Positions 15,461-55,004 of a DNA stretch of 64,000 nucleotides are shown here, piece by piece (position 1 is the first letter of the stretch; every line of letters begins with the position of its first letter). The position numbers were made by a program, and so were the translations under genes. The DNA comes from Escherichia coli (GTDB lineage: Bacteria; Pseudomonadota; Gammaproteobacteria; Enterobacterales; Enterobacteriaceae), in the NCBI RefSeq assembly GCF_024502345.1, contig NZ_JALDNN010000001.1; one strand, written 5' to 3'. Under the pieces are notes generated by a model. The model was not told the origin of the DNA. It did no database searches and was given only the letters and a program-made list of their open reading frames with translations.

Positions 15461-15652
15461 ATAGTAAGCAGTGGCTCATTCACCGACTTATGTCAGCCCC
15501 TTCGGGACGTGCTACATAAAATTCGAATGACGCACAACAAGGTGCCTGCCGTCCAACTTCTGATATCAGCGTAGCTATATCAACCATCGGGCGAAACGTC
15601 GAGTTAGGCACCGCCTTATTCCATAACAAAGCCGGGTAATTCCCGGCTTTGT
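15461..15652 (+). ncRNA. glmY: Small RNA GlmY
   Basis: Sequence agtggctcattcaccgacttatgtcagcccc... recognised as GlmY; ends in hairpin gccggg-taatt-cccggc plus U-tract (15631-15653); lies between purL and glrK on the same strand. Confidence 0.8.
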
Positions 15653-46051: not shown

Positions 46052-46291
46052 TTTAACCGTCCTGTTTCGTGTTGCATCTGCGTTGACTGCACATACTCAC
46101 TCCGGTCACTTACTTATGTAAGCTCCCGGAGATTCGTAAGTTTGTCAACTTGCTGAAACCCGAAACAGTTAGGTTAAAGATAACAAGATATTAGAATCAG
46201 GCCGGGGCGTATCGCGCTCCGTAAACACGGTCGTACATCCAGCCGGTAGCCTGGTTCCTTGCATTGAGTGATGTACGGAGTTTATAGAGCA

Positions 46292-52889: not shown

Positions 52890-53666
52890 ATGTCCGAAAC
52901 AAAAAACGAACTTGAAGACCTGCTGGAAAAAGCAGCAACCGAACCGGCGCACCGCCCGGCCTTTTTCCGTACTCTACTGGAATCCACCGTCTGGGTGCCA
53001 GGTACGGCGGCGCAGGGCGAGGCTGTGGTTGAAGATAGCGCGCTTGATTTACAGCACTGGGAAAAAGAAGACGGCACCAGCGTTATTCCTTTTTTCACCT
53101 CGTTAGAAGCACTTCAACAGGCGGTTGAAGACGAACAGGCATTTGTCGTAATGCCCGTTCGCACATTGTTTGAGATGACCCTTGGCGAAACGCTCTTCCT
53201 TAATGCCAAACTGCCGACCAGTAAAGAATTTATGCCGCGTGAAATCAGTTTGTTGATTGGTGAAGAGGGAAATCCGCTGAGCAGCCAGGAAATCCTGGAA
53301 GGCGGTGAATCGCTGATATTATCGGAAGTCGCAGAGCCGCCAGCACAAATGATTGATTCACTCACCACCTTATTTAAAACTATTAAGCCGGTGAAGCGTG
53401 CTTTTATATGTTCAATTAAAGAGAACGAAGAGGCACAGCCTAATTTACTTATTGGCATTGAAGCCGATGGTGATGTCGAAGAAATTATTCAGGCGGCGGG
53501 AAGTGTAGCGACCGATACATTACCTGGCGATGAACCAATCGATATTTGTCAGGTGAAAAAAGGGGAAAAAGGAATTAGCCACTTTATTACCGAACATATT
53601 GCGCCATTCTATGAACGTCGTTGGGGTGGTTTTTTGCGTGACTTTAAACAGAACCGGATAATCTAA
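52890..53666 (+). CDS. sseB: SseB family protein (serine sensitivity enhancing B)
   Basis: 258 aa from ATG 52890 (MSETKNELEDLL); alternative GTG 52881 would add 3 aa. Confidence 0.85.
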   Translation: MSETKNELEDLLEKAATEPAHRPAFFRTLLESTVWVPGTAAQGEAVVEDSALDLQHWEKEDGTSVIPFFTSLEALQQAVEDEQAFVVMPVRTLFEMTLGETLFLNAKLPTSKEFMPREISLLIGEEGNPLSSQEILEGGESLILSEVAEPPAQMIDSLTTLFKTIKPVKRAFICSIKENEEAQPNLLIGIEADGDVEEIIQAAGSVATDTLPGDEPIDICQVKKGEKGISHFITEHIAPFYERRWGGFLRDFKQNRII

Positions 53667-53697
53667 AATATGCCGCCCCAAAGGGCGGCATTCGGGC

Positions 53698-53823
53698 TTA
53701 CCTGCTGTTCTGAAGGTTGTTAACCACCAGTAAATTGTTGCCGGAGAGACTCAGGTTATTATTTACCTCGGTTAACAGCGCACCAGAAACAATAAGTACG
53801 ATACAAAAGCACCGTATCTTCAT
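53698..53823 (-). CDS. Candidate small hydrophobic protein (41 aa), TimP-like type I toxin
   Basis: ATG at 53823 (minus) to TAA 53700-53698; translation MKIRCFCIVLIVSGALLTEVNNNLSLSGNNLLVVNNLQNSR; basic N-terminus then hydrophobic stretch; weak GGA SD; in-frame upstream ATG at 53835 also possible. Confidence 0.4.
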   Translation of the reverse strand: MKIRCFCIVLIVSGALLTEVNNNLSLSGNNLLVVNNLQNSR

Positions 53824-53886
53824 TGTGCGGTCCATGCGAAGACCGCATCACGACAGCACCACTGGCGATATTGCCGCGATAGCAAG

Positions 53887-53903
53887 CGCTGAGACGCGCT
53901 TGC
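53887..53903. repeat. 17-nt direct repeat copy A (cgctgagacgcgcttgc) within ryfA leader, embedded in palindrome agcaagcgc-tgagac-gcgcttgct
   Basis: Exact 17-mer recurs at 54047-54063. Confidence 0.85.
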
Positions 53904-54011
53904 TCTAACGGTCGCGGAACATCCTTTCCTTAAGCCAGCGCCCGCTTGCGAGACGGCGGAAAGGGCCGCAGTGGATAATACACTAACAGAACAATAATAA
54001 CTCTCTTTTGC

Positions 54012-54040
54012 TTGACAAAAAGAGAGTTACTGGCGAGTAT
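54012..54040 (+). promoter_or_regulatory. Candidate sigma70 promoter for a plus-strand small RNA
   Basis: Perfect -35 TTGACA (54012-54017), 17-nt spacer, weak -10 GAGTAT (54035-54040); sits in an 11-bp perfect palindrome aactctctttt / aaaagagagtt (53999-54029). Confidence 0.3.
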
Positions 54041-54046
54041 TGTCTC

Positions 54047-54063
54047 CGCTGAGACGCGCTTGC
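54047..54063. repeat. 17-nt direct repeat copy B (cgctgagacgcgcttgc)
   Basis: Exact match to 53887-53903. Confidence 0.85.
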
Positions 54064-54114
54064 ATTACTACGGTAATACAACCTGCTGGAAAGGCCGCGA
54101 ACCAGACCAGCAAT

Positions 54115-54142
54115 AAAAAACCGCCAAATTCGGCGGTTTTTT
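54115..54142. terminator. Bidirectional rho-independent terminator (sseA 3' end / plus-strand sRNA)
   Basis: aaaaaa-ccgcc-aaattc-ggcgg-tttttt: A-run and T-run flank the stem so it terminates in either direction. Confidence 0.7.
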
Positions 54143-54158
54143 ATTGCCTGTAAAATAC

Positions 54159-55004
54159 TTATTTCACTGGCTCAACCGGTAAATCTGCCCGCGCGCCCCA
54201 TTCACTCCATGCGCCGTCGTACAGTTTCACGTTTGGCACATCCAGCGTCGCGAGTGCTAACAAAACCACGGCTGCCGTTACACCAGAGCCGCAGCTGACG
54301 ATAATTGGTTTGTCGTAGCTGACGCCGCGACCAAAAAATATCGCATCCAGTTCATCGGTCGTTTTTAGTTCGCCTTCGCGCACCAGTTCCGTCCACGGAA
54401 CATTCAGTGCTCCGGGAATATGTCCGCGACGTAAACCTGGGCGAGGTTCATCAACTTCTGCGTTAAAACGTGCAGCCGGGCGGGCATCAATAATTTGCGC
54501 CGTATTTTCATGGCTTGCCAATAATACATCGGTTACTTTCACCACGGCTTCAGGATTAAACGCGGCGTTAAACTCTCCTTCCGGCAGCTCTACTGCACCT
54601 TCTTCTAACAACAGATCATCGCGCTGCCAGCCTGCAAGTCCACCCCCTAGAATCGACACTTTCTCTACACCAAAGGTGCGCAGCATCCACCATGCTCGTG
54701 GGGCTGAGAAAAGATTACCTTCGTCATAGACAATCAGGTGCTTATCCTGGTTAACGCCTAATTCACGCATCGCCACGGCGAACGTTTCCGGGCGCGGCAG
54801 CATGTGCGGAAGCGGGGAAGTGTGATCAGAAAGCGCTTCGATATCAAAAAACACTGCGCCGGGAATATGTCCATTCAGATACTCCTGAGCAACGTTACGA
54901 TCCTCCTGTCCAGGCGACGCCATGCGGGCATCGATAATCTGAATTTCCGGGTCATCAATATGTTCGGCGAGCCAGTCGGCTCCTACAAACCATGTCGTGG
55001 ACAT
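54159..55004 (-). CDS. sseA: 3-mercaptopyruvate sulfurtransferase
   Basis: Start set at ATG 55004 (MSTTWFVGADWL, 281 aa); two rhodanese domains, active-site CGSGVTA. Confidence 0.9.
   Translation of the reverse strand: MSTTWFVGADWLAEHIDDPEIQIIDARMASPGQEDRNVAQEYLNGHIPGAVFFDIEALSDHTSPLPHMLPRPETFAVAMRELGVNQDKHLIVYDEGNLFSAPRAWWMLRTFGVEKVSILGGGLAGWQRDDLLLEEGAVELPEGEFNAAFNPEAVVKVTDVLLASHENTAQIIDARPAARFNAEVDEPRPGLRRGHIPGALNVPWTELVREGELKTTDELDAIFFGRGVSYDKPIIVSCGSGVTAAVVLLALATLDVPNVKLYDGAWSEWGARADLPVEPVK

Follow-up and report, generated by a model that had tools for sequence, protein, structure and literature searches.

A stretch of 64,000 nucleotides (nt) from an Escherichia coli contig (NZ_JALDNN010000001.1; the whole stretch is referred to as the window) carries the same 17-nt sequence twice on one strand, once in the leader of the ryfA gene and once in the region upstream of it. 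This raises the question whether the repeat reflects base pairing between two RNAs. An earlier note on this DNA had proposed exactly that, namely that the mRNA of a small putative toxin, transcribed from the minus strand, pairs with a divergent small RNA (sRNA) of about 95 nt. Very likely the locus represents the timPR module, a type I toxin-antitoxin system of E. coli in which the antitoxin sRNA TimR pairs with the second stem-loop (SL2) in the timP mRNA's 5' untranslated region (5'UTR); this mRNA was formerly known as RyfA. The system is already known: it has been published, mechanistically dissected and annotated in K-12, and its sRNA was described as TimR in Salmonella and as RyfB1/2 in Shigella.

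The repeat and the two divergent genes

The repeat CGCTGAGACGCGCTTGC is an exact 17-mer with two copies in the window (53887-53903, copy A, and 54047-54063, copy B), both on the plus strand and at the positions given by the earlier note. A third copy was not found in the 64 kb when up to three mismatches were allowed. An analytic estimate gives about 1.1e-3 expected occurrences per 64 kb for an exact 17-mer that recurs within 300 nt, and a length of at least 17 nt was reached in 2 of 200 first-order Markov simulations of the window. For the placement observed here, with a leader of 150 nt compared to a divergent upstream region of 400 nt, the expectation is about 3.5e-6. A shuffle statistic which allowed three mismatches was discarded, because it is uninformative for an exact 17-mer. 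The window contains only one other direct repeat of at least 17 nt within 300 nt, a 19-nt repeat at 6270/6518 that belongs to shoB/ohsC.

Copy A lies within the gene of the timP mRNA, for which the following features were found:

53665..53969, minus strand: timP mRNA (formerly the sRNA RyfA), 305 nt; Rfam RF00126 ryfA, homologous to the K-12 ncRNA ryfA (b4440)
53698..53823, minus strand: timP coding sequence, 41 amino acids (aa; MKIRCFCIVLIVSGALLTEVNNNLSLSGNNLLVVNNLQNSR), start codon at mRNA +147
53670..53691, minus strand: intrinsic terminator of the timP mRNA from a terminator scan, with a stem of 9 pairs (7 of them G-C) followed by a T-rich tail; corresponds to the last hairpin in the Rfam model
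53975..53980, minus strand: probable -10 hexamer of the timP promoter (TATTAT), predicted by reading the sequence
53934..53940, minus strand: SL1 half of a pseudoknot, CGCUGGC, mRNA 30-36, with 7-bp complementarity to mRNA 104-110
53881..53904, minus strand: SL2 of the timP 5'UTR, mRNA 66-89, with a 9-bp stem and a 6-nt loop; perfect palindrome agcaagcgc-tgagac-gcgcttgct
53887..53903, minus strand: repeat copy A, the TimR-binding site, mRNA 67-83; exact 17-mer that covaries with the TimR 5' end in 15 modules
53860..53866, minus strand: SL3 half of the pseudoknot, GCCAGUG, mRNA 104-110, mostly in the SL3 loop
53827..53846, minus strand: SL4, mRNA 124-143, in the minimum free energy (MFE) fold; most conserved part of the Rfam model

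The mRNA matched RF00126 with 314.2 bits (gathering score 80) over the full length of the model (1-296), and the open reading frame (ORF) matched the NCBIfam family NF040796, toxic_TimP, with 77.7 bits (cut-off 45). The timP coding sequence is annotated by RefSeq in an identical genome; in strain FDAARGOS_943, the region 53660-54160 of the window is found with 100% identity. The gene order at the locus is pepB-sseB-timP-sseA-yfhM. At the probable timP -10 an ATAATAC/GTAC motif is kept in the intergenic alignment. A minus-strand promoter TTGTCA/TATTGT called by a consensus scan was not relied on; transcripts from it would begin 15 nt upstream of the 5' end annotated for ryfA. An in-frame upstream ATG (53824-53835, minus strand) would lengthen the TimP ORF from 41 to 45 aa (MDRT-MKIR...); this ATG is located within SL4 (mRNA 135-137), while the start annotated by RefSeq is the downstream ATG at mRNA +147.

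The MFE fold of the leader gives four stem-loops, SL1-SL4, and copy A forms SL2, which is also present in the Rfam consensus structure of ryfA. Copy A comprises 8 nt of the 5' arm of SL2, the entire loop and 3 nt of the 3' arm. The earlier note had placed this copy in a near-perfect palindrome; the palindrome is in fact perfect. A likely Shine-Dalgarno (SD) sequence, GGA (mRNA 137-139), is predicted in the 3' arm of SL4.

On the opposite strand, copy B is located at the 5' end of a gene with the following features:

54012..54017, plus strand: timR -35 hexamer TTGACA, 30 nt before copy B; perfect consensus
54035..54040, plus strand: timR -10 hexamer GAGTAT after a 17-nt spacer; agrees with the consensus at 3 of 6 positions, A2 and T6 among them
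54047..54142, plus strand: TimR antitoxin sRNA, 95-96 nt, 5' end at 54047 or 54048; body homologous to K-12 timR and conserved across genera
54047..54063, plus strand: repeat copy B, which forms the seed at the TimR 5' end and is complementary to SL2, as indicated by the exact 17-mer, covariation and duplex energy
54113..54144, both strands: bidirectional intrinsic terminator of timR (plus) and sseA (minus); 13-pair hairpin in the TimR fold

In the RefSeq annotation of K-12, timR (b4811, 100 nt, "putative small regulatory RNA TimR") adjoins sseA on the strand opposite to ryfA (b4440) and timP (b4812). The window aligns with the body (CUGCUGGAAAGGCCGCGAACCAGAC...) and the terminator of b4811 from 54064 to 54142, and homology to the 5' end of b4811 places TimR of the window at 54048-54142, which gives 95 nt, in agreement with the length of about 95 nt estimated by the earlier note. 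With regard to the start site, which the earlier note had set near 54047, the conserved -10 permits either 54047 or 54048, and the annotation in K-12 points to G54048; in that case 16 of the 17 bases of the repeat would lie within the RNA. Judged from sequence features, the timR gene and timP are divergent, adjacent and non-overlapping, and TimR is separated from the timP 5' end by 78 nt. The predicted fold of TimR leaves the 5' end nearly free and consists of two internal hairpins and the terminator (z = -4.17).

Like every other sequence element named by the earlier note, the terminator deviates by no more than 1-2 nt from the expected position (54115-54142); it lies about 65 nt downstream of copy B. 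Its stem contains 5 G-C pairs flanked by A-U pairs, with an A-run before and a T-run after it, and the hairpin is regarded as bidirectional because it ends the convergent gene sseA as well, 15 nt past its stop codon (54159).

A 14-bp inverted repeat (AATAACTCTCTTTT / AAAAGAGAGTTACT, 53996-54031) extends across the divergent promoter region and is centred on the nearly palindromic TTGACA (plus) / TTGTCA (minus), so that a possible -35 of the minus strand overlaps with that of timR. The complete repeat occurs only in the lineages of the B type and of K-12; at the same place, other E. coli have the shorter inverted repeat TACTCT/AGAGTA and Citrobacter has TCCCT/AGGGA. The 14-bp repeat could be a regulator site or the trace of a promoter duplication.

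Between TimR and the leader all 17 positions of the repeat form perfect pairs (mRNA 67-83), 64 nt upstream of the start codon. The complementarity of 17 nt predicted by the earlier note thus holds, and it extends further, to 19 Watson-Crick and 2 G-U pairs over 23 positions. A duplex prediction, which had been named as a check, yielded -35.1 kcal/mol for the 17-mer alone. Cofolding of TimR and the leader gave a difference in free energy (ddG) of -15.8 kcal/mol, compared to -8.8 +/- 1.7 kcal/mol for TimR with a shuffled 5' end. For longer segments RNAduplex returned unrealistically long duplexes, and therefore only the core helix and cofolding against the shuffled-seed controls were used.

Comparison of the locus across Enterobacterales

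For comparison, a set of 15 Enterobacterales loci with full-length ryfA was used. The genome scan with the pattern GCGGTCNNNGCANNGACCGCAC was too permissive, as approximately 105 of its 120 loci were unrelated GC-rich palindromes; a Salmonella locus was not among these 120, but the 15 Enterobacterales loci were sufficient. In a register-free test, the first 150 nt of the mRNA were compared with the 400 nt upstream on one and the same DNA strand, and their longest common substring was determined. For 12 of 16 loci this substring was located at mRNA positions of about 66-87 and about 64-97 nt upstream of the timP 5' end, with a length of 10-17 nt (controls 6-11 nt). If G-U pairs are allowed, 13 of 16 loci pair. 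The position is shared, while the sequence differs from taxon to taxon, as shown by the following examples in mRNA sense:

This window: GCAAGCGCGTCTCAGCG
Citrobacter sp.: CAGGCACACCTCAGTG
Yersinia aldovae: GCACACTCTCGTGCT
Erwinia phyllosphaerae: AAGCACGACCTCGTGC
Rahnella (R. victoriana, R. bruchi): GCGCAGACTAGCG

Pairs were then counted in a fixed-register alignment of 15 modules, each represented by its SL2 followed by the 5' end of its TimR. Standard pairs occupied 96% of the cells (26-46% in slid registers), and 10 of the 20 pairs were altered on both sides. The number of compensatory cells was 52, compared to 14.1 +/- 3.0 after shuffling, and none of 500 shuffles reached 52. All four Watson-Crick pair types occur at positions of the SL2 loop. 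Since these loop positions are outside the stem of SL2 itself, their covariation is a specifically intermolecular signal.

The elements around the seed are conserved as well. CTTGAC at the timR -35 is invariant in 13 of 13 intact loci, which extend from Escherichia as far as Erwinia, Rahnella and Yersinia. In the same 13 loci, nAnTAT follows 17 nt downstream of the -35, and the complementarity starts 6-8 nt past the -10. The body of TimR is kept in six genera, and its terminator is always located 150-180 nt upstream of the timP 5' end. In a register-free search the predicted pseudoknot between SL1 and SL3 was found at the same positions and with compensatory changes in 13 loci, with variants such as CAUCGGU/GCCGAUG and CACCGGU/ACCGGUG across the genera.

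Three loci are degenerate, namely those of C. amalonaticus, Y. aleksiciae and Y. similis. In C. amalonaticus and Y. aleksiciae only the terminator is left of TimR; its position 26-45 nt upstream of a ryfA that is shortened at the 5' end suggests that a deletion has removed both promoters. The locus of Y. similis has lost the seed complementarity, and a match to the Rfam family Ysr224 (133.9 bits, on the ryfA strand) lies between a TimR-like terminator and ryfA. Ysr224 (RF02770) was rejected as a family for TimR because of its wrong orientation and its absence from the remaining Yersinia loci.

All features by which a timPR locus can be recognized in the sequence are present in the window: the RNA family, the ORF family, a divergent sRNA gene, the homology to the TimR annotated in K-12 and to its relatives across genera, the complementarity to the leader, and the predicted pseudoknot together with the predicted SL4. 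These features, the complementarity and its covariation across genera, the conservation of promoter and terminator, and the presence and covariation of the pseudoknot were computed in this study. The architecture of a divergent type I antitoxin, which the earlier note had recognized, is consistent with the literature and with the annotation of K-12, and its two repeat copies covary.

Mode of action and alternative explanations

Most of what is known about this system comes from Salmonella. Andresen et al. (2020, PMC7667032) renamed ryfA of Salmonella timP and the divergent sRNA STnc2070 TimR. TimP is a toxic inner-membrane protein, and the TimR 5' end and the timP 5'UTR share a continuous complementarity of 18 nt, the pairing of which was proven by compensatory mutants (M6). 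TimR inhibits the translation of timP in vitro, and a rifampicin chase showed that it is less stable than the timP mRNA. Complementary sequences followed by terminators were found upstream of timP in all enterobacteria analysed (PMC7667032). Eleftheraki and Holmqvist (2024, PMC11228461) described the 5'UTR as SL1-SL4, with SL2 as the binding site of TimR and SL4 sequestering the SD. In Salmonella, a 7-bp pseudoknot between SL1 and SL3 is essential for the translation of timP, and TimR protects the SL2 loop and disrupts this pseudoknot (PMC11228461). A paper from 2026 in Nucleic Acids Research adds a long-range interaction that frees the SD.

The module of the window resembles timPR of Salmonella (Andresen et al. 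2020; Eleftheraki and Holmqvist 2024; Eleftheraki et al. 2026) in the RF00126 mRNA, the TimP family and the divergent, non-overlapping layout. Moreover, in both the 5' end of the sRNA has a complementarity of 17-18 nt to SL2 of the 5'UTR, with the site located more than 60 nt upstream from the ribosome-binding site (RBS), and both have a leader of four stem-loops with a 7-bp pseudoknot between SL1 and SL3. They differ in the allele of seed and SL2 and in the length of TimP (38 aa in Salmonella, 41 aa in E. coli). Salmonella also possesses an additional gene, STM2534, between sseA and timP, whereas TimR and sseA have a common terminator in the window. The allele of the window is known from its sequence, that of Salmonella from experiments.

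Following the Salmonella model, the minus strand would give rise to a timP mRNA of about 305 nt, which encodes a 41-aa inner-membrane toxin behind a structured 5'UTR with SL1-SL4. From the plus strand a divergent TimR of about 95 nt would be transcribed, reaching from the promoter with the perfect -35 to the terminator common with sseA. The unstructured 5' end of TimR would pair with SL2 (mRNA 67-83), and this pairing probably begins at the 6-nt loop before the 5' arm is invaded. The opening of SL2 would destabilize the neighbouring pseudoknot of SL1 and SL3, which the ribosome would need for initiation at the RBS sequestered by SL4. Due to the loss of the pseudoknot, TimP would not be made while TimR is present. 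The mechanism known from Salmonella is the most likely one here and, by analogy, would operate with this seed allele in E. coli.

A one-strand direct repeat of this kind, which reflects a complementarity of about 18-20 nt between a short sRNA and the toxin 5'UTR, is a property of shoB/ohsC, zorO/orzO, tisB/istR-1 and dinQ/agrB, whose genes are likewise divergent and non-overlapping. In these four pairs, however, the toxin mRNA needs nucleolytic processing, and the antitoxin blocks the standby site or RBS and triggers cleavage by RNase III, whereas timP is unprocessed and controlled by a structural switch (PMC11228461, PMC13000454). In canonical processed systems of the type of hok/sok, tisB/istR-1 and shoB/ohsC, the antitoxin binds at the RBS, the standby site or a leader ORF. 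This is not the case at timP, where SL3 and SL4 separate the copy A site from the AUG. Since the TimR site is located 64 nt upstream of the AUG and the mRNA of Salmonella is unprocessed (PMC11228461), TimR is best described as a type I-like antitoxin that acts via a non-canonical structural route.

Several observations weigh against the interpretation as a timPR module controlled in this way. The timR -10 agrees with the consensus at just 3 of 6 positions, and a consensus scan of the window, which demands 4 of 6 positions at the -10, called neither the timR promoter nor the plus-strand terminator; the latter was probably missed as the A/U extension of the stem consumes the T-tail. The start site of TimR in this strain is predicted from the sequence. 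Furthermore, Rfam 15 holds no family that matches TimR, and the region gave only sub-threshold matches (AgrB with 29.8 bits, RNAI, IS128 and others), which are driven by the terminator hairpin and were not taken as evidence of homology. The match of AgrB, the antitoxin sRNA of dinQ, covers the 3' part of TimR (54064-54145, plus strand; gathering score 40) and appears to be due mainly to the terminator hairpin and the preceding stem. The RNA itself was detected by Northern blots in Salmonella (PMC7667032) and in E. coli CFT073 and APEC (avian pathogenic E. coli) CH138 (PMC13188913), as well as by RNA-seq in Shigella (PMC5333039). The toxicity of TimP and its repression by pairing with TimR were shown for Salmonella only (PMC7667032), not yet for E. 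coli (PMC13188913), and the mechanism was elucidated for the allele of Salmonella, from which it would have to carry over to the seed sequence of the window. In APEC, deletion of timR had little phenotype, and RyfA was argued to be a regulatory RNA independent of the peptide (PMC13188913). In the study on Shigella, the RyfA1 protein was not detected (PMC5333039).

The last two observations also bear on the alternative that survives best, according to which the pairing is real, but its main role in E. coli is the control of one sRNA by another and not that of a toxin. RyfA would then act in trans on stress responses, fimbriae and ompC, and TimR (RyfB) would titrate or destabilize RyfA, or RyfA would serve as a sponge for TimR. 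Fris et al. (2017, PMC5333039) found divergent transcripts of about 100 nt, RyfB1 and RyfB2, in Shigella, with a complementarity of 16-17 nt that overlaps the variable region of RyfA1. Overproduction of RyfB1 specifically lowered the RyfA1 RNA. The tandem RyfB1/RyfA1 and RyfB2/RyfA2 of Shigella dysenteriae resembles the locus of the window in the divergent transcripts of about 100 nt upstream of each ryfA and in a variable region that confers specificity, but consists of two full modules and was read as sRNA/sRNA regulation (Fris et al. 2017). In APEC the phenotypes of a ryfA deletion vanish once timR is also deleted (PMC13188913), and in uropathogenic E. coli deletion of ryfA causes broad stress and virulence phenotypes (PMC8205139). 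The studies on Shigella, uropathogenic E. coli and APEC regard RyfA as a regulatory RNA, the level or activity of which is kept in balance by TimR, and the peptide was not detected in them. On the other hand, the TimP ORF is intact and belongs to a curated TimP family, and the conserved and covarying control of translation (SL4 with the SD, pseudoknot of SL1 and SL3) is hard to reconcile with a non-coding RNA. Translation, toxicity and repression by TimR were, moreover, directly shown in Salmonella (PMC7667032). Hence, an sRNA as the main target of TimR is possible, but clearly less likely than a toxin mRNA. Both roles are compatible and do not exclude each other.

A second alternative is that TimR is a classical type I antitoxin, whose duplex with timP leads to cleavage by RNase III and decay of the mRNA, or which blocks a standby site or the RBS. 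This is the usual route of most type I systems (PMC11228461), a perfect duplex of at least 17 bp with the energy given above is a plausible substrate of RNase III, and the lowered RyfA1 level upon RyfB1 overexpression in Shigella would be in accordance with it (PMC5333039). However, with the site 64 nt upstream of the start codon and SL3 and SL4 in between, such a mechanism is difficult to envisage, and in Salmonella deletion of timR left the timP mRNA level unchanged (PMC7667032), no processing was seen and repression strictly depended on the pseudoknot (PMC7667032, PMC11228461). Repression in an rnc mutant, and likewise with a purified translation system, was already shown for Salmonella. 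Considering the position of the site and these data, RNase III cleavage or RBS occlusion is unlikely, and a classical route is given only a small chance.

It is extremely improbable that the two copies match by chance or are what a local duplication has left behind without function: some close direct repeat of at least 17 nt did arise in two simulated windows and the locus has a history of duplication in E. coli, but the repeat varies between species and E. coli alleles and yet stays complementary, with compensatory changes in half of the 20 pairs, every intact locus has it at the same distance from a conserved promoter, and its expectation at this placement is minute. Chance is excluded by the covariation. 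The timPR module with TimR acting on SL2 is thus the interpretation preferred here.

Seed alleles in E. coli and meaning of the repeat

Within E. coli, at least three cognate alleles of seed and SL2 (A, B and C) were found, each of them internally complementary:

Allele A (K-12, ATCC 8739, ETEC4068): SL2 GCAGGUGUUUCACAGC, TimR 5' end GCUGUGAAGCACCUGC
Allele B (window, IAI1, EC10; E. whittamii with one G-U): SL2 GCAAGCGCGUCUCAGCG, TimR 5' end CGCUGAGACGCGCUUGC
Allele C (O157:H7; E. coli SCPM-O-B-8794 and Escherichia sp. E1V33 with 1-2 SL2 base differences each): SL2 CAGGCACCCCACAGUG, TimR 5' end CACUGUGGGGUGCCUG

Strain EC10 has an additional distal TimR-like copy with a fourth seed. The region 53860-54150 of the window was matched with at least 99% identity in 1565 of 5425 genomes. 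The variable region and the specificity of RyfB1 versus RyfB2 have already been published for Shigella (PMC5333039), and the alleles of E. coli extend the variable region noted there for RyfA1/RyfA2.

The locus of K-12 shares with the window a homologous TimR body and terminator, a ryfA with 96% identity and the flanking genes sseA and sseB. In contrast to the window, which has one module with cognate neighbours 78 nt apart, K-12 has its annotated timR 400 nt from ryfA, with a seed (GCUGUGAAGCACCUGCG) that fits the SL2 allele of K-12, and between both genes a ryfA 5' remnant and an unannotated TimR-like gene. The order of this type is sseA, timR with the A seed, a ryfA 5' remnant of about 25 nt with AT-rich filler, the TimR-like gene with the B seed, ryfA with an A-type SL2, and sseB.

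The second TimR-like gene of K-12 is located next to ryfA (NC_000913.3, approximately 2653681-2653777, minus strand) and is also present in ATCC 8739. It has its own promoter, the conserved body, a terminator and a seed identical to that of the window. The SL2 of K-12 ryfA fits the distal timR (b4811, 400 nt away beside the ryfA remnant) and not this adjacent copy; the proximal copy with the B seed is non-cognate, although it would still form 15 Watson-Crick and 4 G-U pairs, with 2 mismatches, with the SL2 of K-12. The 399-nt spacer of K-12 was covered to at least 80% in 1862 of 5426 complete genomes, and no annotated feature lies under the spacer match in the eight example genomes listed. The mosaic locus is present in about a third of the complete genomes (types of K-12, B and ATCC 8739), and the TimR gene is seldom annotated outside K-12. 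The additional or orphan TimR paralogues might be expressed and either cross-talk with timP or act on other targets, as a small antitoxin network in which the SL2 loop would determine specificity, but this is rather improbable.

The other long repeat of the window, GTGCAGCATGCACCCTCAA, is an exact 19-nt direct repeat at 6270-6288 and 6518-6536. Its first copy lies in the 5' part of a match to ohsC (Rfam RF02495, 106.8 bits, 6213-6289, minus strand), and its second copy upstream of ShoB (MTDCRYLIKRVIKIIIAVLQLILLFL, within the plus-strand ORF at 6594-6692); the region 6213-6692 is the known divergent type I toxin-antitoxin pair shoB/ohsC. The rncO leader (2586-2800), the sRNA GlmY (15470-15617) and the iscRS stability element (46181-46290) were also identified in the window, all well above the Rfam gathering scores.

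The comparative data, i.e. the seed alleles and the additional TimR-like gene, are modest, small extensions of published work. The value of the analysis lies in the validation: a divergent type I antitoxin with its approximate length, promoter, terminator and target hairpin was correctly deduced from the raw sequence alone. As a long direct repeat between a leader and its divergent upstream region also marks shoB/ohsC, looking for such repeats suggests itself as a simple and specific way to screen for divergent type I systems.

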